The notes under the pieces are model-generated. The model worked only from the letters and a program-made list of their open reading frames with translations. It ran no database searches and was not told the origin of the DNA. From the sequence record OQ721909: 64,000 nucleotides of DNA; one strand, 5' to 3'. The translations under genes were made by a program, and so were the position numbers. This stretch comes from Escherichia phage vB_VIPECOOM01. Shown piece after piece: positions 53,353 to 63,815 of this stretch; within the stretch, counting starts at the first letter, position 1, and every line of letters begins with the position of its first letter.

Positions 53353-56300
53353 ATGGCCGAGATTAAAAGAAAGTTCAGAGCAGAAGACGGTCTGGACGCA
53401 GGTGGCGATAAAATAATCAACGTAGCTTTAGCTGATCGTACCGTAGGAACTGACGGTGTTAACGTTGATTACTTAATTCAAGAAAACACAGTTCAACAAT
53501 ATGATCCAACTCGTGGATATTTAAAAGATTTTGTAATCATTTATAATAATCGTTTTTGGGCAGCAACGGATAATATTCCAAAACCTGCTGGAAGTTTTAA
53601 TAGAATTCGTTGGAAAGCATTACGTACTGATGCCGTATATACAACCGTATCATCTGGACCATATCAATTAAAATCCGGAGAAGCAATTTCAGTAGATACA
53701 TCAGTTGGTAATGACATTGAGTTTAATTTACCACCTTCTCCGCTTGATGGAGAAACCGTAATAATTCAAGATATTGGTGGAAAACCTGGTATAAATCAGG
53801 TTAAAATAAATTCTTCAAATCAGAGTATTGTTAATTTTAGAGGTGAACAAGTACGTTCAGTTCTAATGACTCATCCAAAGTCACAGATGATATTCATTTT
53901 TAATAATCGTTTGTGGCAAATGTATGTTGCTGATTATAGCAGAGAAGCTGCGATTGTTACTCCATCGACTGCATATCAAGCACAATCTAATGATTTTATC
54001 GTGCGTAGATTTACTTCCGCTGCGCCGATTAATATTAAACTTCCGAGATTTGCTAATCATGGCGATATTATTAATTTCGTTGATTTAGATAAATTAAATC
54101 CACTTTATCATACAATTGTCACAACATATGATGAAACAACTTCAGTACAAGAAGTTGGAACTCATTCTATTGAAGGCCGTACATCGATTGACGGTTTCTT
54201 GATGTTTGATGATAATGAAAAATTATGGAGATTGTTTGACGGGGATAGTAAAGCACGTTTACGCATTATAACGACTAATTCAAACATTCGTCCAAATGAA
54301 GAAGTTATGGTATTTGGTGCGAATAATGGAACAACTCAAACAATTGAGCTTCAGCTTCCAACTAATATTTCTGTTGGTGATACTGTTAAAATTTCCATGA
54401 ATTACATGAGAAAAGGACAAACAGTTAAAATCAAAGCTGCTGGTGAAGATAAAATTGCTTCTTCAGTTCAATTGCTGCAATTCCCAAAACGCTCAGAATA
54501 TCCACCTGAAGCTGAATGGGTGACTGTTCAAGAATTAGTTTTTAACGGTGAAACTAATTATGTTCCAGTTTTACAACTTGCTTATATAGAAGATTCTGAC
54601 GGAAAATACTGGGTTGTACAGCAAAACGTTCCAACTGTTGAAAGAGTCGATTCTTTAAATAATTCTACTAGAGCAAGATTAGGCGTAATTGCTTTAGCTA
54701 CACAAGCCCAAGCTAACGTCGATTTAGAAAATTCTCCACAAAAAGAATTAGCAATTACTCCAGAAACATTAGCTAACCGTACTGCTACAGAAACTCGCAG
54801 AGGTATCGCAAGAATAGCAACTACTGCTCAAGTAAATCAGAACACTACATTCTCTTTTGCTGATGACCTTATCATCACTCCTAAAAAGCTGAATGAAAGA
54901 ACTGCTACAGAAACTCGCAGAGGTGTTGCTGAAATTGCTACGCAGCAGGAAACTAATACAGGTACTGATGATACTACAATCATCACTCCTAAAAAGCTTC
55001 AAGCTCGTCAAGGTTCTGAAACATTATCGGGTATTGTAACTTTTGTATCTACCGCAGGAGCTACTCCAGCTTCTAGTCGTGAATTAAATGGTACAAATGT
55101 TTATAATAAAAATACTAATAATTTAGTTGTTTCGCCTAAAGCTTTGGATCAGTATAAAGCTACTCCAACACAGCAAGGTGCAGTAATTTTAGCAGTTGAA
55201 AGTGAAGTAATTGCTGGACAAAGCCAAGAAGGATGGGCAAATGCGGTTGTAACGCCAGAAACGTTACATAAAAAGACATCAACTGATGGAAGAATTGGTT
55301 TAATTGAGATTGCTACGCAAAGCGAAGTTAATACAGGAACTGATTATACTCGTGCAGTCACTCCTAAAACTTTAAATGACCGTAAAGCAACTGAAAGTTT
55401 AAGTGGTATAGCTGAAATTGCTACACAAGTTGAATTCGACGCAGGTGTCGACGATACTCGTATCTCTACACCATTAAAAATTAAAACCAGATTTAATAGT
55501 ACTGATCGTACTTCTGTTGTTGCTCTATCTGGATTAGTTGAATCAGGAACTCTCTGGGACCATTATACCCTTAATATTCTTGAAGCAAATGAGACACAAC
55601 GTGGTACACTTCGTGTAGCTACACAAGTTGAAGCTGCTGCAGGAACATTGGATAATGTTCTAATAACTCCTAAAAAGCTTTTAGGTACTAAATCTACTGA
55701 AGCGCAGGAAGGTGTTATTAAAGTTGCAACTCGGTCTGAAACTGTAGCTGGAACGTCAGCAAATACTGCTGTATCTCCAAAAAATTTAAAATGGATTGTG
55801 CAGAGTGAACCTACTTGGGCAGCTACTACTGCGATAAGAGGTTTTGTTAAAACCTCATCCGGTTCAATTACATTCGTTGGTAATGATACAGCTGGTTCTA
55901 CGCAGGACTTAGAACTATATGAGAAAAATAACTATGCAGTATCACCATATGAATTAAACCGCGTATTAGCAAATTATTTGCCGTTAAAAGCAAAAGCTGT
56001 AGATAGTAATTTATTAGATGGTTTAGATTCACTCCAGTTCATTCGTAGGGATATTGCGCAGACGGTTAATGGTTCACTAACCTTAACGCAACAAACGAAT
56101 CTGAGTGCCCCTCTTGTATCATCTAGTACTGCTACGTTTGGTGGATCAGTTTCGGCAAATAGTACATTAACTATTTCTAATACTGGAACGGCAACTCGTC
56201 TGATTTTTGAAAAAGGGCCTCAAACTGGGACGAACCCAGCTCAAACGATGACAGTCAGAGTGTGGGGAAATCAATTCAGCAGTGAATCGGACACAACACG

Positions 56301-57222
56301 TTCTACTGTATTTGAAGTTAGTGATGAAACGTCTAGTCACTTTTATTCTCAGCGCAATAAAGCTGGTAATATAACATTTAATATAAACGGTACAGTAACG
56401 CCGATAAATGTGAATGCTTCAGGAACATTGAATGCGAATGGCGTTGCAACATTCGGTAGTTCAGTTACTGCTAATGGCGAATTTATCAGTAAATCATCGA
56501 ATGCTTTTAGAGCAATAAACGGTGATTATGGATTCTTTATTCGTAATGATGGTGCTAACACCTATTTTATGCTTACTGCATCTGGTGATCAGACCGGTGA
56601 ATTTAATGGATTACGTCCTTTATCTATTAATAATGCATCTGGTCAAGTAACGATTGGTGAAAGCTTAATCATTGCCAAAGGTGCTACTATAAATTCAGGC
56701 GGTTTGACTGTTAACTCGAGAATTCGTTCTCAGGGTACTAAAACATCTGATTTATACACCCGTGCCCCAACATCTGATACTGTAGGATTCTGGTCAATAG
56801 ATATTAACGATTCAGCCACTTATAACCAGTTCCCGGGTTATTTTAAAATGGTTGAAAAAACTAATGAAGTGACTGGACTTCCATACTTAGAACGTGGCGA
56901 AGAAGTTAAATCTCCCGGTACATTGACTCAGTTTGGTAACACACTTGATTCGCTTTACCAAGATTGGATTACTTATCCAACTACCCCAGAAGCGCGCACC
57001 ACTCGCTGGACACGCACATGGCAGAAAACCAAAAACTCTTGGTCAAGTTTTGTTCAGGTATTTGATGGGGGTAACCCTCCTCAACCTTCGGATATAGGAG
57101 CGATCCCATCTGATAACGGAATAATAGGTAATCTTACTATTCGTGATTTCTTGCGAATTGGTAATGTTCGCATTATTCCTGACCCAGTGAATAAAACTGT
57201 TAAATTTGAGTGGATTGAGTAA
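53353..57222 (+). CDS. 34: long tail fibre proximal subunit gp34
   Basis: 1289 aa as T4 gp34; late promoter upstream; internal tandem modules of about 40 aa. Confidence 0.95.
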   Translation: MAEIKRKFRAEDGLDAGGDKIINVALADRTVGTDGVNVDYLIQENTVQQYDPTRGYLKDFVIIYNNRFWAATDNIPKPAGSFNRIRWKALRTDAVYTTVSSGPYQLKSGEAISVDTSVGNDIEFNLPPSPLDGETVIIQDIGGKPGINQVKINSSNQSIVNFRGEQVRSVLMTHPKSQMIFIFNNRLWQMYVADYSREAAIVTPSTAYQAQSNDFIVRRFTSAAPINIKLPRFANHGDIINFVDLDKLNPLYHTIVTTYDETTSVQEVGTHSIEGRTSIDGFLMFDDNEKLWRLFDGDSKARLRIITTNSNIRPNEEVMVFGANNGTTQTIELQLPTNISVGDTVKISMNYMRKGQTVKIKAAGEDKIASSVQLLQFPKRSEYPPEAEWVTVQELVFNGETNYVPVLQLAYIEDSDGKYWVVQQNVPTVERVDSLNNSTRARLGVIALATQAQANVDLENSPQKELAITPETLANRTATETRRGIARIATTAQVNQNTTFSFADDLIITPKKLNERTATETRRGVAEIATQQETNTGTDDTTIITPKKLQARQGSETLSGIVTFVSTAGATPASSRELNGTNVYNKNTNNLVVSPKALDQYKATPTQQGAVILAVESEVIAGQSQEGWANAVVTPETLHKKTSTDGRIGLIEIATQSEVNTGTDYTRAVTPKTLNDRKATESLSGIAEIATQVEFDAGVDDTRISTPLKIKTRFNSTDRTSVVALSGLVESGTLWDHYTLNILEANETQRGTLRVATQVEAAAGTLDNVLITPKKLLGTKSTEAQEGVIKVATRSETVAGTSANTAVSPKNLKWIVQSEPTWAATTAIRGFVKTSSGSITFVGNDTAGSTQDLELYEKNNYAVSPYELNRVLANYLPLKAKAVDSNLLDGLDSLQFIRRDIAQTVNGSLTLTQQTNLSAPLVSSSTATFGGSVSANSTLTISNTGTATRLIFEKGPQTGTNPAQTMTVRVWGNQFSSESDTTRSTVFEVSDETSSHFYSQRNKAGNITFNINGTVTPINVNASGTLNANGVATFGSSVTANGEFISKSSNAFRAINGDYGFFIRNDGANTYFMLTASGDQTGEFNGLRPLSINNASGQVTIGESLIIAKGATINSGGLTVNSRIRSQGTKTSDLYTRAPTSDTVGFWSIDINDSATYNQFPGYFKMVEKTNEVTGLPYLERGEEVKSPGTLTQFGNTLDSLYQDWITYPTTPEARTTRWTRTWQKTKNSWSSFVQVFDGGNPPQPSDIGAIPSDNGIIGNLTIRDFLRIGNVRIIPDPVNKTVKFEWIE
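54760..55800 (+). repeat. in-frame tandem modules of about 40 aa inside gene 34
   Basis: About 8 modules with consensus '..TE..G...IAT..E.N.GTDDT..ITPKKL..R'; identical 24-mers at 54781-54804 and 54901-54924. Confidence 0.7.
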
Positions 57223-57230
57223 GAGGTATT

Positions 57231-58346
57231 ATGGAAAAATTTATGGCAGAGTTTGGACAAGGATACGTCCAAACGCCATTTTTATCGGAAAGTAATTCAG
57301 TAAGATATAAAATAAGTATAGCGGGTTCTTGCCCGCTTTCTACAGCAGGACCGTATGTTAAATTTCAGGATAATCCTGTCGGAAATCAAACATTTAGCGC
57401 AGGTCTTCATTTAAGAGTTTTTGACCCTTCAACAGGAGCATTAGTTGATAGTAAGTCATATGCTTTTTCTACTTCAAATAATACTACATCAGCTGCTTTT
57501 GTTAGTTTCATGAATTCTTTGTCAAACAATAGACTTGTTGCTATATTAACTAGCGGAAAGGTTAATTTTCCTCCTGAAGTGATATCTTGGTTAAGGGGAG
57601 CAGGAACTTCAGTTTTTCCATCAGATTCAGTATTGTCAAGATTTGACGTATCATATGCTGCTTTTTATACTTCTTCTAAAAGAGCTATTGCATTAGAGCA
57701 TGTTAAACTAAGTAATAGAAAAAGCACAGATGATTATCAAACTATTTTAGATGTTGTATTTGATAGTTTAGAAGACGTCGGAGCTACGGGATTTCCTAAA
57801 AGAACATATGAAAGTGTCGAGCAATTTATGTCAGCGGTTGGTGGAACTAATAACGAAATTGCGCGATTGCCAACTTCAGCTGCTATAAGTAAACTATCTG
57901 ATTATAATTTAATTCCTGGCGATGTTCTTTATCTTAAAGCACAGTTATATGCTGATGCTGATTTACTTGATCTTGGAACTACAAACATATCCATTCGTTT
58001 TTATGATGCATCAAATGGATATATTTCCTCTACCCAAGCTGAGTTTACTGGGCAAGCTGGGTCTTGGGAATTAAAGGAAGATTATGTAGTTGTTCCTGAA
58101 AATGCAGTCGGATTTACTATATATGCGCAGAGAACTGCTCAAGCTGGTCAAGGCGGAATGAGGAATTTAAGCTTTTCTGAAGTATCAAGAAATGGCGGCA
58201 TTTCAAAACCTGCCGAATTTGGCGTCAACGGTATTCGTGTTAATTATATCTGTGAATCGGCTTCACCTCCAGATATAATGGTACTTCCTACACAAGCCTC
58301 TTCTAAAACTGGCAAAGTGTTTGGGCAAGAATTTAGAGAAGTTTAA
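57231..58346 (+). CDS. 35: long tail fibre hinge protein gp35
   Basis: 371 aa; syntenic. Confidence 0.9.
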   Translation: MEKFMAEFGQGYVQTPFLSESNSVRYKISIAGSCPLSTAGPYVKFQDNPVGNQTFSAGLHLRVFDPSTGALVDSKSYAFSTSNNTTSAAFVSFMNSLSNNRLVAILTSGKVNFPPEVISWLRGAGTSVFPSDSVLSRFDVSYAAFYTSSKRAIALEHVKLSNRKSTDDYQTILDVVFDSLEDVGATGFPKRTYESVEQFMSAVGGTNNEIARLPTSAAISKLSDYNLIPGDVLYLKAQLYADADLLDLGTTNISIRFYDASNGYISSTQAEFTGQAGSWELKEDYVVVPENAVGFTIYAQRTAQAGQGGMRNLSFSEVSRNGGISKPAEFGVNGIRVNYICESASPPDIMVLPTQASSKTGKVFGQEFREV

Positions 58347-58408: not shown

Positions 58409-59065
58409 ATGGCTGATTTAAAAGTAGGTTCAACTGTGGGTGGATCTGTCATTTGGCATCAAGGAAATTTTCCATTGAATTCAGCCGGTGACGATGTACT
58501 CTACAAATCATTTAAAATATATTCAGAATATAATAAACCGCAGGCAGCTGATAACGATTTCGTTTCTAAAGCTAATGGCGGTACGTATTTAAATAAAGTA
58601 ATTTTTAATAAAGGAATGACTGTTCCTGGTGCAGGGTCAGGTGACAATGGTATTTTTGCTGGTCCTGGTGATAATGCCACGTATGATACTACAAATATGG
58701 ATATTGTTTCGTGGTATGGTATTGGTTTTAAATCATCACAGGGTTCAGCGGGTAGAACTGTAGTAATTAACACGCGAAATGGAGATATTAGCTCAAAGGG
58801 TGTAATTGAAGCATCACAAATACGCGCAACTTCATTATCACCAGTAAATAATTATGACCTTACACGGAAAGATTATGTTGATGGAGCAATAAATATTGTT
58901 ACAGCAAACGCAAACTCTAGAGTATTACGCTCTGGAGACACTATGACAGGAAATTTGACTGCGCCAAACCTTTTTTCACAGAATCCTGCATCTCAACCTT
59001 CACATGTTCCACGATTTGATCAAATTGTTATTAAGGATTCTGTTCAAGATTTCGGCTATTATTAA
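58409..59065 (+). CDS. 36: long tail fibre distal connector gp36
   Basis: 218 aa; late promoter and hairpin upstream. Confidence 0.9.
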
Positions 59066-59073
59066 GAGGACTT

Positions 59074-62022
59074 ATGGCTACTTTAAAACAAATACAATTT
59101 AAAAGAAGCAAAACCGCAGGTCAACTTCCTGCTGCTTCAGTATTAGCCGAAGGTGAATTGGCTATTAATTTAAAAGATAAAGCAATTTTCACAAAAGATG
59201 ATTCAGGCAATGTTATAGAATTAGGTTTAAAATATGGAGGAACAATTGATGGTTCTTTAACTGTTAATGGAAATATAACTGGAACTTTAATTGGAAATTC
59301 TAGCACAGCTACTAAATTGCAAACACCTAGGAAAATTAATGGTATATCCTTTGATGGGTCAAAAGATATCACGCTAACTCCATCTGACATAAATGTCAAT
59401 AGCACAACGTTTATAAAAAATAACGGCGAATTACCGGTTGATGCTAATTTAGATGAGTATGGGCCTGTTGAAGAATATCTTGGGGTTTGGTCGAAATCTA
59501 CTTCAACAAATGCGCAACCGGCAAATAAATTCCCAGAAGAAAATGCCGTAGGTGTACTAGAAGTATTTGTGGCCGGTCAATTTGCTGGTACTCAGAGATA
59601 TACTGTAAGATCTGGTAACGTATATGTTCGATCTTTGTCTGCTAAATGGAACGGTGTTAACGGTCCGTGGGGAGTTTGGCGTAATGTTCAAGCGTCAACT
59701 CGTCCACTTTCACAAACGATTGACCTTGATAGCTTGGGAGAATTAGAACATTGCGGCTTATGGCGAAATAGTTCAAGTGCTATTGCATCATTTGATCGCC
59801 ATTATCCAGAAGAAGGATCAGCCGCACAAGGATTTTTAGAAATATTTGAAGGTGGTTTATACACGAGAACGCAGCGATATACTACCCGCATGGGTATGGT
59901 TTATACTCGTTGTCTCGCTGCCGCATGGGATGCTAGCGCACCCAAGTGGGAGGAATGGAAGCAGGTTGGTCATGGCACACCAGCGACTTTTTATGATGGA
60001 GATCTGAATGATTTTAAAACTCCTGGGTTATATAATATTTTAGGCACTGATGCCGTTATTAATTGCCCTACAGGTGAAGGTTTACCAGCCGTTATTGTTG
60101 GTTTGCTAGAAGTTAAACAGCGTGCTTCTGGTGGTGCTATTTTCCAAAAATTTACTACTGCCGGAACGGGTGAAACTACTCGCGATCGTATTTTTGAGCG
60201 TGCATATACTGGTGGTGCGTGGGGTGCATGGAACGAAGTATATACATCTTATTCTCTGCCAATTACTTTGGGTATGGGTGGTATTAAAGCTCAATTATCG
60301 GAGTTAGATTGGCAAACCTTTGATTTTGTTCCTGGTAGTATGTTTAGCGTTCCTTTGAACAAAATAAAGAATATGCCAGCAAATATGGATTGGGGCACGA
60401 TTGATGGAAACCTGGTTATGTTTTCCGTTGGTCCTAGCGAACATACTGGCACAGGACGTACTGTTCAGGTTTGGCGTGGTACTGTATCCCAGACAAACTA
60501 CCGTTATTTTGTTGTGCGTATAGCTGGAAATCCAGGAAACAGGACTAACACTTGTCGCCGTGTTGTTCTTGAAGACGGATCACATACTTGGACTGCTCAA
60601 CAAAACTTTAGGGGATTGCTAAATATCACCGCTGATATTAATCTTGGTGCTAATAAGAAAATTTCAATTGCTCCGGGAGCATATATTCAAGGCCCTGCTA
60701 GCGGTTCTGGTTCAAATACTTACGCAAATCAGAATACTACTATTGCGCCATTATATCAGGCCATTGACGATTCAAATAAAAACCAGTTTGCTCCTATTGT
60801 AAAACAGAAAAACACTGTAACAAATATTACTATGGCTTCTGGTATGGATATTGCTAGTTCAGAATATCGTATCATTGCTCAAGGTGATTTATCCGCTACT
60901 GGAACTACAGCTAATGAATTAGCTACATGGCGTTTCTTGCCGTCTGGCCGATTCATGTCACAAAGTCGAGTTTATGCTGGCGCAGCATTCTTGAACACTG
61001 ATGGTAACATTGCTGGTTCAATCTGGAAGAAATACAACGATGCAACCAACTTAGACGCTGCTTTGAATACTCGCGTAGGTAAAAGCGGTGATATTATGAC
61101 CGGACGCTTGACAATTCAAAGCCCAGGTGATTCTATTGTATTATCAGCACCTGCTAGTAATTCTTTGCATATTCGTGGTGACGTAGACGGGACTGGTAAC
61201 TGGTATATTGGTAAGGGTGGTGATGATAATGGATTAGCGTTCTATAGTTATGCTACTAATGCTGGTGTATACATTACAAACGCAGGAGATATCACGCTAA
61301 GTCCAAAAGGCGTCGAAATGGCTCATGTCAATAACATTCGATTATATGTTCATGGTGAACGTTGGACCGCTAGTCAACCAGGTGATTGGGGCAACCAATG
61401 GCGAGTAGAAGCGCCAATATTCGTCGATCATGGTTATGTTGGATCAGATAGCTATTATCCAATTATTAAAGGAAGAAGTGTAGTCACCAATCAAGGGTTT
61501 GTAACTGCCGTCGATCTTGGTATTCGTCGTGTCCCTAATAATTGGGGACAAGCAATTATTCGTGTTGGATCTGCGGAGGCATCGCCAGCGGCTGGACACC
61601 CTAACGCGGTATTTGAATTTCATTACGACGGTACTTTCTATTCTCCTGGTAATGGTAACTTTAACGATGTGTATATTCGTTCCGATGGTCGACTTAAGAT
61701 CAATAAAGAAGAGTTAGAAAACGGAGCACTTGAAAAAGTATGCCGACTGAAGGTTTATACATACGATAAGGTTAAGTCTATTAAAGATCGTAGTGTTATT
61801 AAACGTGAAGTTGGTATTATTGCTCAGGATCTTGAAAAAGAATTACCGGAAGCTGTGTCTAAAGTTGAAGTTGATGGATCTGATGTTCTGACAATTTCTA
61901 ACTCCGCTGTGAATGCTCTTTTAATTAAGGCTATCCAAGAAATGAGCGAAGAAATTAAAGAATTAAAAACGCCTTTCTTCACTAAAATTGCTCGCAAAAT
62001 TAGTAATTATTTTAAATTCTAA
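59074..62022 (+). CDS. 37: long tail fibre distal subunit gp37 (with C-terminal intramolecular-chaperone-like domain)
   Basis: 982 aa; N-terminal '[22 protein letters not shown]' as T4 gp37; C-terminal 113 aa resemble an endosialidase-type auto-chaperone. Confidence 0.92.
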
Positions 62023-62028
62023 CAACAA

Positions 62029-62041
62029 GGGGCTTTGCCCC
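62029..62041 (+). terminator. hairpin after gene 37
   Basis: ggggc-ttt-gcccc then 'tttgg'; short loop. Confidence 0.45.
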
Positions 62042-62054
62042 TTTGGAGAAAATT

Positions 62055-62855
62055 ATGGCAGTAGTTGGTGTTCCCGGTTGGATTGGAAGTTCATCTGTAA
62101 ATGAAACAGGACAACGATGGATGAGTCAAGCGGCTGGTCAATTAAGATTGGGTGTTCCTTGCTGGATGAGCCAATTCGCCGGACGCTCAAGAGAGATTAT
62201 TCATACCGTAACAGCAAACCATAACTTTAATGGTCAATGGTTCCGCGACCGTTGCTTTGAAGCTGGCGGTGCACCCATTGTATTCAATATTGTTGGTGAT
62301 ATCGTTTCTTATTCTAAAGATGTGCCACTTTTCTTTATGTATGGGGATACGCCTAATGAATATGTTGTTCTTAATATTCATGGCGGTGTTCATATGTGGG
62401 GTCGTGGTGGTAATGGTGGATACACTCACTCAGGAGGCGACGGTAACGGTACACAAGGCGGTCATGTTATTCAAAATGATATCGGTGGACGGCTTCGTAT
62501 TTGGAACTACGGTGTTATAGCTGCTGGCGGTGGTGGTGGTGGCGGTATTGCATATCGTCCACACTCAGGGGCAAACTGGCAAGATATCGGTGGCGGTGGC
62601 GGTCGACCTTTCGGTGGTGCTGGCGGTGGCGGTTATTCCGGTGGTGCTGCTTCGTATGAAGGTCCGGGTGGTGGTTATGACTATGGTAACGCACACTCCG
62701 GCGCAGGCGGTAATGCTGGTGCTGCTGGTCAGAATGCATGGTATGACGGCGGTAAAGTTCTTAAAGTTGGTGTTGGTGGTGCGTCTGGTCATGCAGTGTT
62801 TGGATCTTCTCCAACTTGGGGTGCTGTTGGAACAATTTACGGACCAAGAGTATAA
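62055..62855 (+). CDS. 38: gp38 receptor-binding adhesin, T2-type (glycine-rich motifs)
   Basis: ORF-track start 62043 is TTG; ATG 62055 gives 266 aa; C-terminal half has poly-Gly blocks (GGGGGGG, GGGGG, GGAGGGG) separated by short variable segments. Confidence 0.85.
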
Positions 62856-62885: not shown

Positions 62886-63542
62886 ATGGCAGCACCTAGA
62901 ATATCATTTTCGCCCTCTGATATTCTGTTGGGTGTTCTAGATCGCTTGTTCAAAGATAATGCTACCGGGAAAGTTCTTGCTTCCCGGGTAGCTGTCGTAA
63001 TTCTTTTGTTTATAATGGCGATTGTTTGGTATAGGGGAGATAGTTTCTTTGAGTACTATAAGCAATCAAAGTATGAAACATACAGTGAAATTATTGAAAA
63101 GGAAAGAAATGCACGCTTTGAATCTGTCGCCCTGGAACAACTCCAGATAGTTCATATATCATCTGAGGCAGACTTTAGTGCGGTGTATTCTTTCCGCCCT
63201 AAAAACTTAAACTATTTTGTTGATATTATAGCATATGAAGGAAAATTACCTTCAACAATAAGTGAAAAATCACTTGGAGGATATCCTGTTGATAAAACTA
63301 TGGATGAATATGCAGTTCATTTAAATGGACGTCATTATTATTCAAACTCAAAATTTGCTTTTTTACCAACTAAAAAGCCTACTCCCGAAATAAATTACAT
63401 GTACAGTTGTCCATATTTTAATTTGGATAATATCTATGCTGGAACAATAACCATGTACTGGTATAGAAATGATCATATAAGTAATGACCGCCTTGAATCA
63501 ATATGTGCTCAGGCGGCCAGAATATTAGGAAGGGCTAAATAA
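62886..63542 (+). CDS. t: holin T
   Basis: 218 aa; single N-terminal TM segment 'VAVVILLFIMAIVWY' and large periplasmic domain, as T4 T. Confidence 0.92.
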   Translation: MAAPRISFSPSDILLGVLDRLFKDNATGKVLASRVAVVILLFIMAIVWYRGDSFFEYYKQSKYETYSEIIEKERNARFESVALEQLQIVHISSEADFSAVYSFRPKNLNYFVDIIAYEGKLPSTISEKSLGGYPVDKTMDEYAVHLNGRHYYSNSKFAFLPTKKPTPEINYMYSCPYFNLDNIYAGTITMYWYRNDHISNDRLESICAQAARILGRAK

Positions 63543-63815
63543 TTATTTGTTTGTATACATCTCTAGATATCGATATACACCCTCAAAACCCTCGTTGAAT
63601 TCGTCGATGAGGGTTTTCTTATCTTCTTGAGTTAATTCAGAAACAATTTTACGGAATGAATTCTGATTTAACTTTCTACCTTCATGCGTTACTCCAATCT
63701 CATTCAGAAATGCAATAAAATTAGCACGATTCTCAACAATATCTTCTCTGGAAAATTTAATCAAAATAGACGCAACAGTAATAATTTCACGAACTGTATC
63801 AATATTTTTATTCAT
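63543..63815 (-). CDS. asiA: anti-sigma-70 factor AsiA
   Basis: 90 aa 'MNKNIDTVREIITVASILIKFSREDIVENRANFIAFLNEIGV...' matches recalled T4 AsiA. Confidence 0.9.
   Translation of the reverse strand: MNKNIDTVREIITVASILIKFSREDIVENRANFIAFLNEIGVTHEGRKLNQNSFRKIVSELTQEDKKTLIDEFNEGFEGVYRYLEMYTNK

Follow-up and report, generated by a model that had tools for sequence, protein, structure and literature searches.

C-terminal intramolecular chaperone (IMC) domains are removed by autoproteolysis from the fibres of phages S16 and T5 and from the spikes of K1F and phi29 (PMC7289586). The residues involved were experimentally defined as S911 and K916 in the K1F endosialidase and as S1264 and K1269 in T5, where an S1264A mutant was uncleaved and Lys1269 was proposed to activate the serine (PMC4690869). 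In the T5 protein, an Arg from the neighboring subunit would make cleavage depend on correct folding of the trimer, an Arg and an Asp of the neighboring subunit were proposed as the oxyanion hole, and the IMC has been described with a coiled coil and with an insertion forming a long beta-hairpin “tentacle” (PMC4690869). Among the T-even-type fibers, the last 113 residues of S16 gp37 constitute an IMC that cuts itself off between the two serines in DLNVS^SDRRIKK and thereby uncovers a docking surface for gp38 (PMC7917993), and the gp37-gp38 structure was solved by Dunne et al. (2018; as summarized in PMC7917993, PMC6851490, and PMC7289586). Three N-terminal Trp residues of gp38 plug into gp37 (PMC6851490), and the docking site reportedly stays hidden until cleavage has taken place (PMC7917993). 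Processing of T2 gp37 and the role of T2 gp38 as the adhesin are attributed to Drexler, Riede and Henning (1986) and Riede et al. (1987), as cited in PMC3157838, and for the fPS Yersinia phages the predicted cleavage site is DVYIR^SDGRLKI (PMC7917993). Most T-even phages are reported to carry S16-like rather than T4-like tips (PMC6851490), the gp38 of T4 being an unrelated assembly factor that is absent from the virion (PMC6851490, PMC3157838).

The window analyzed here, a 64,000-nucleotide stretch of Escherichia phage vB_VIPECOOM01 (OQ721909), contains the canonical T-even long-tail-fiber block in the order gp34-gp35-gp36-gp37-gp38-holin t-asiA. The genes for gp34 (53353..57222), gp35 (57231..58346), and gp36 (58409..59065) precede gene 37, and gene 38 is followed on its 3' side by holin t (62886..63542) and then by asiA on the minus strand (63543..63815). 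Gene 37 (59074..62022, plus strand) comprises 982 codons plus the stop and was assigned as the long tail fiber distal subunit precursor (PHROG 1699, E 9e-203). The tail-fiber segment that was searched, gp37-gp38, showed 100% identity to its counterpart in Escherichia phage vB_VIPECOOM03 (OQ721911.1, Tequatrovirus), whose entry for gene 37 reads “long tail fiber protein distal subunit” and leaves the peptidase domain unmentioned. A 57-aa open reading frame on the minus strand (61824..61997) was rejected as a chance occurrence inside a well-supported coding region. Gene 38 starts 32 nt past the gene 37 stop and is preceded by the ribosome-binding site GGAG (62045-62048). A short G+C hairpin, AGGGGC-UUU-GCCCCU (62028..62042, plus strand), is located between the gene 37 stop and this site, and hairpins with different stems are present in the same spacer of T2 (GAGGGC-UUCG-GCCCUC) and S16 (GAGCC-UACG-GGCUC).

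An earlier note on this DNA had suggested that gp37 ends in an endosialidase-type chaperone-like domain, and the 113 residues it quoted were exactly the plus-strand translation of 61681-62019, corresponding to gp37 aa 870-982 (12.8 kDa). The Pfam check that it proposed for a peptidase S74 domain returned PF13884 (Peptidase_S74, “chaperone of endosialidase”) at 50.0 bits (E 3.6e-13) versus a gathering cut-off of 22 bits, with the match beginning at the first residue of the 113-aa stretch and covering aa 870-928 (61681..61857, plus strand), including G914-I-I-A-Q918, and profile positions 1-57 of 58. The domain makes up the very end of a tail-fiber protein, as expected of the S74 type, and the same stretch aligned with the far C-terminus of over 25 PHROG families including tail-fiber, hyaluronidase, and PblB proteins. 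Searching with tblastn gave matches to the IMC in 1345 phage records, among them T-even relatives, T5-like phages, and hyaluronidases of Streptococcus prophages, and all of the matches in the sampled rows were annotated as tail-fiber or tailspike proteins. A protein database search with the 113-aa domain identified 17 close relatives that were mostly fragmentary, and the closest solved structure by sequence was S16 gp37 from the gp37-gp38 complex (6F45_A, E 1e-4), aligned through the whole domain. No second IMC was identified among the other open reading frames of the window with an HMM derived from the IMCs of five proteins (next best E about 1). Judged by sequence, the last 113 residues of gp37 are an intramolecular chaperone of the endosialidase/T5 type.

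The residues predicted to carry out cleavage were located by a MAFFT alignment of window gp37, T2 gp37, S16 gp37, T5 pb1, and the K1F endosialidase that spanned the IMC plus 20 residues upstream (alignment A1). The aligned junctions were VT^SNGERK in K1F (S911, K916), NT^SDARLK in T5 (S1264, K1269), NVS^SDRRIK in S16 (S637, K642), VYIR^SDIRLK in T2 (S1243, K1248), and VYIR^SDGRLK in the window (S870, K875). The Ser and the Lys were invariant in A1, as were the G and Q of the G.IAQ motif, so that Ser870 (TCC, 61681..61683, plus strand) is the predicted nucleophile, at which the released domain would begin, and Lys875 (AAG, 61696..61698, plus strand), five residues past the Ser, the predicted general base. 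This alignment with K1F and T5 bears out the chaperone-like assignment of the earlier note, and the motifs it had listed fared differently: S...K(+5) and G.IAQ proved to be family-wide, while “LK.Y.Y” is lineage-specific only, with LNGVIY in T2 and IGGYTY in S16. The spacing between S and K(+5) was kept in all 30 viral-contig relatives, with NDVYIR directly before the Ser in 26 of them; T2 has NVYIR at this position.

Comparison of the window junction with the published string showed that DVYIR^SDGRLKI of the fPS phages is identical to it. By analogy with the homologous systems, gp37 of this phage would be cleaved between Arg869 and Ser870, and the cleavage-site alignment with S16, T5, K1F, and T2, together with PMC7917993, predicts a mature gp37 of aa 1-869 (59074..61680, plus strand) that ends in NDVYIR. 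The corresponding masses are 106.7 kDa for the full-length protein, 93.9 kDa for the mature fiber subunit, and 12.8 kDa for the released domain. The NDVYIR residues (aa 864-869, 61663..61680, plus strand) would form the last strand of the mature fiber and the predicted gp38 docking surface, a role taken from PMC7917993.

Fold comparison used an AF2 monomer model of the IMC that was built from a shallow alignment, had low confidence (mean pLDDT 59), and displayed the element order H-E-E-H-E-E-long H. With this low-confidence query, Foldseek against 350,542 PDB chains filled ranks 1-10, 12, and 16 with IMC structures (TM only 0.48-0.54), including 7DC3 (MyRF ICA domain, E 2e-5), 3GUD (titled “a novel intramolecular chaperon” in its deposition), the endosialidase IMC 3GW6, and 4UW8 (T5 pb1 with its IMC). 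The best fold matches were IMCs, and given the poor monomer model the search is weak on its own and is taken as corroboration rather than proof. The predicted long C-terminal helix (model residues 74-110 by DSSP of the same low-confidence model, equivalent to aa ~943-979 and 61900..62010, plus strand) would be the part that assembles into a trimeric coiled coil in the IMC. Gp37 ends in ~17 lineage-specific residues, a tail unlike that of most relatives.

The earlier note had further claimed that the fiber tip is of the T2 rather than the T4 mode, and this was upheld by the gene downstream. Gene 38 (62055..62855, plus strand) codes for a T2/S16-type receptor-binding adhesin of 266 aa from the ATG at 62055, the start annotated in OQ721911.1. 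Its product matched PF21721 (Gp38_N, E 1.4e-19) in the docking domain (62055-62180, plus strand) and PF05268 (GP38 adhesin, E 3.4e-66) in the polyglycine body (62193-62852, plus strand), with similarity to the gp38 proteins of PP01 (9V85_A, E 4e-61) and S16 (6F45_D, E 3e-43). The docking domain retains all three Trp residues (W9, W22, and W37), aligned with those of T2 and S16 gp38, and the protein contains 26% Gly, with runs of G7, G5, G4, and G3 at residues 158-207 that align to the polyglycine regions of S16 and PP01. As controls, the same profile search detected PF13884 at residues 1243-1300 of T2 gp37 and both PF05268 and PF21721 in T2 gp38, while T4 gp37 lacked PF13884 and T4 gp38 lacked PF05268 and PF21721. 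Instead, T4 gp37 carries Collar and Phage_fiber domains (PF07484, PF03335) near its C-terminus; Pfam profiles identified no such T4-type domains in the window gp37 and no T4-gp38-like assembly protein downstream.

An IMC alone does not imply a gp38 cap. In 10 of the 30 viral-contig relatives, no gp38 match was found downstream within the flank searched, including L011, L012, and L032-L036. In L011 and L012, a holin gene lies directly downstream of the IMC-ended fiber gene, much as PMC3157838 describes for RB49, and L032-L035 are siphovirus-like. As some relatives have an IMC without an adjacent gp38, the assignment to the T2 mode depends on the presence of both the IMC and gp38, and on this combination the profiles support a tip of the T2 mode and not of the T4 mode. 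By analogy with S16 and T2, gp38 would be present at the tip of the virion fiber in this phage.

Three other readings were weighed against cleavage and capping. In one, the IMC-like domain stays uncleaved as a structural or receptor-binding tip, with gp38 located elsewhere or acting only as an assembly factor. Such an outcome would fit the residue before the Ser, which is Arg in the window compared to Thr in K1F and T5 and Ser in S16, and also the shortened form of the T-even IMC, which is without the tentacle hairpin. However, the VYIR^SD junction with its Arg is shared with T2, whose gp37 is reported as processed, and the S16 IMC is of the same short type and is reported to be autocleaved (PMC7917993, PMC7289586). 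The invariance of the Ser and Lys also argues against an uncleaved domain, as does the full docking domain of gp38, whose site reportedly needs cleavage for its exposure (PMC7917993), and this reading is considered highly improbable.

The other two readings are given scarcely any weight. Gene order identical to that of T4 and membership of the genus Tequatrovirus would suit a T4-mode tip, in which gp37 bears its own receptor-binding domain and gp38 is a non-virion assembly chaperone like that of T4. The profiles already refute it at both proteins, since the Collar and Phage_fiber domains of T4 gp37 are missing from the window protein, T4 gp37 in turn lacks PF13884, and the window gp38 is of the PF05268/PF21721 type, neither of which was found in T4 gp38. 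Resemblance by chance or composition, for instance from a generic coiled-coil tail, could be argued from the helical C-terminal third with its generic heptad-like composition, but the PF13884 match falls in the first 59 residues of the domain, which are non-helical, and its E-value refutes this explanation on profile statistics. The 1345 phage records matched by tblastn, with the sampled rows all tail-fiber or tailspike, and the lack of a match in any other open reading frame of the window also count against chance.

The preferred reading, comprising an IMC, self-cleavage, and capping of gp37 by gp38, is assigned a probability of about 0.93. Gp37 would be made as a 982-aa precursor of 106.7 kDa in which Ser870-Phe982 forms the peptidase-S74-type intramolecular chaperone. 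Three IMCs would come together, probably via their C-terminal helices, and start the folding of the distal shaft, a beta-structured trimer, at its C-terminal end. Correct folding of the trimer would be followed in each chain by attack of Ser870, with Lys875 as its activator, on the Arg869-Ser870 bond, as in the chemistry of K1F and T5. The 12.8-kDa IMC would then be released, as is reported for S16 and as processing is for T2, leaving a flat tip of three NDVYIR strands on which one gp38 monomer may dock via W9, W22, and W37 of its N-terminal helical domain, as in 6F45. The polyglycine-sandwich domain of gp38 with its hypervariable loops would form the receptor-binding tip. Direct sequence evidence covers the IMC with its aligned catalytic residues, the neighboring adhesin gene with the Trp residues for docking, and the difference from T4; the part played in folding, the proteolytic step, and the capping by gp38 are modeled on the homologs S16, T2, T5, and K1F. 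The T-even IMC is without the tentacle insertion, so the details of chaperoning may differ.

For annotation, this reading would set the end of the mature fiber at Arg869 and assign host range to gp38 and not to the gp37 C-terminus. These assignments matter for host-range prediction and for engineering, where adhesin swaps would target gp38 itself or the NDVYIR/IMC/Gp38_N boundary. For the biology of these fibers, the finding of an IMC in gp37 adds nothing new.

The close IMC relatives that reach this position all carried NDVYIR, and the sequence upstream of it was unrelated among them, placing a mosaic boundary at the last strand. IMC relatives with 63-70% identity and an identical junction were found on unrelated shafts in siphovirus-like viral contigs of 7-45 kb that are probably prophages, and these contigs encode shortly downstream a 168-aa protein with a Gp38_N domain and without the polyglycine body. 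Stx phages have a similar pair, consisting of an IMC-ended fiber and a small Gp38_N protein also without the polyglycine body, and database annotations already name the small Gp38_N proteins “Gp38” or “tail fiber adhesin.” A tentative suggestion, which we regard as somewhat less probable than its opposite, is that NDVYIR, the IMC, and Gp38_N make up a portable dock-and-cap cassette used beyond the T-even long tail fibers. If the interface were interchangeable, adhesins could swap between phage families by recombination at the cassette. The idea may be only partly new given the existing annotations.

The locus shares with T4 its position, the gp34-36 partners, and a conserved gp37 N-terminus. 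It differs in that T4 has no IMC and its receptor-binding domain is part of gp37, which forms a needle tip with gp38 and gp57A as intermolecular chaperones. The K1F endosialidase (endoNF, MEROPS S74, 3GW6) and T5 pb1 (4UW8) resemble the window gp37 in ending with a module of the self-cleaving type that carries Ser/Lys(+5), the conserved G..(A/V)Q motif, and, behind these, a C-terminal helix, and they belong to the same Pfam family and were recovered by the fold search. They differ in showing 15-19% identity, in an insertion of 30-50 residues that is absent from the T-even IMCs (99-117 aa), and in having as the tip after cleavage their own C-terminal domain with no separate adhesin cap.

The S16 gp37/gp38 pair (6F45) is closer, with a 113-aa IMC of the short type without the tentacle hairpin, the motif S-D-x-R-x-K, the order gp37-gp38-holin, and a gp38 with three docking Trp residues and a polyglycine sandwich. 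Differences from S16 include 27% identity over the segment in A1 (the IMC plus 20 residues upstream), a pre-scissile Arg in the window (NDVYIR^S) compared to Ser in S16 (DLNVS^S), and an unrelated upstream gp37 shaft, the window protein being longer (982 versus 749 aa). T2, of the same genus, shares the junction VYIR^SD.RLK and the combination of PF13884 with PF05268/PF21721, with 44% identity over the last ~125 residues of gp37 and 53% identity at the gp38 N-terminus including all three Trp residues. It differs in its 99-aa IMC, which is without the extra C-terminal tail of 14-17 residues present in the window, and in a gp37 of 1341 aa with a largely different shaft. The published site of the fPS Yersinia phages (PMC7917993, 2021) is identical to that of the window, and cleavage there is likewise predicted only. 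Descriptions of the mechanism date back to 1986 for T2, as cited in PMC3157838, and at the structural level to 2018 for S16, as summarized in PMC7917993 and PMC6851490. The gp37 finding is correct and, with the S16 and fPS cleavage sites published, already known, and a gp37 IMC with a gp38 cap is the ordinary arrangement of T2/S16-type phages.

Alignment of the close relatives of the intramolecular chaperone domain of gp37 (IMC) revealed that NDVYIR, the predicted last strand of the mature protein, and the IMC were kept while the sequence 5' of NDVYIR was unrelated (window 61600-61680). This pattern places the recombination boundary at the final beta-strand of the mature fiber, and the same boundary has been remarked on for the fPS phages (PMC7917993).

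The junction NDVYIR^SD.RLK was also identified, identical to that of the window, at the end of the fiber in approximately 20 viral contigs of 7-45 kb with a siphovirus-like tail module (L013, 362..4050, and also L014-L031), which are probably prophages. The IMC of these fibers was 63-70% identical to the window IMC, and the fiber gene preceded a tail-tube-like ORF, after which came a 168-aa ORF with the Gp38_N docking domain (PF21721, E 1.9e-15). This ORF lacked the glycine-rich body of the adhesin and had Asn in place of the third docking Trp. A small, 44%-identical "tail fibre adhesin" was encoded directly after the IMC fiber in Stx phages such as HG792105.1 (43172-44058). In a single 36-kb viral contig (L035, 2875..3781), the IMC-ended fiber gene was followed by three tandem paralogous ORFs of ~100 aa that occupied the place held elsewhere by the Gp38_N adhesin. 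All three carry "FDIPNG(W/Y)" close to the N-terminus and have "(Y/H)FKF" or "YRRL" at the C-terminus.

Two further relatives, a 9-kb fragment (L011, 2858..3765) and a 165-kb contig of T-even size (L012, 2915..3802), encoded a gp37 that ends in the IMC, with a 65-72-aa ORF and then holin t downstream of it, and a search of their downstream flanks did not find the gp38 adhesin. This order resembled the arrangement described for RB49 (PMC3157838).

The last ~17 residues of the window gp37 (aa 966-982, window 61969-62019) take the place of the coiled-coil ending ..AELAELKATK found in most close relatives, and were common to only P0001 and P0002 (96-97% identical) among the 16 relatives aligned. 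The gp37 of T2 has no counterpart of this tail, whereas that of S16 has one of similar length but unrelated.

The spacer from the stop codon of gene 37 to the Shine-Dalgarno sequence of gene 38 contained a hairpin with a 6-bp G+C stem (AGGGGC-UUU-GCCCCU, window 62028-62042). The hairpin lacks a T-run and is thus not a typical terminator. The z-score of the 51-nt region was only -1.2. The mechanical ORF of gene 38 begins directly 3' of the hairpin, at TTG 62043; based on the public record and GGAG at 62045-62048, a start at ATG 62055 (266 aa) is favored instead. Hairpins were present at the matching position in the spacers of T2 (GAGGGC-UUCG-GCCCUC) and S16 (GAGCC-UACG-GGCUC), each with a different stem sequence.
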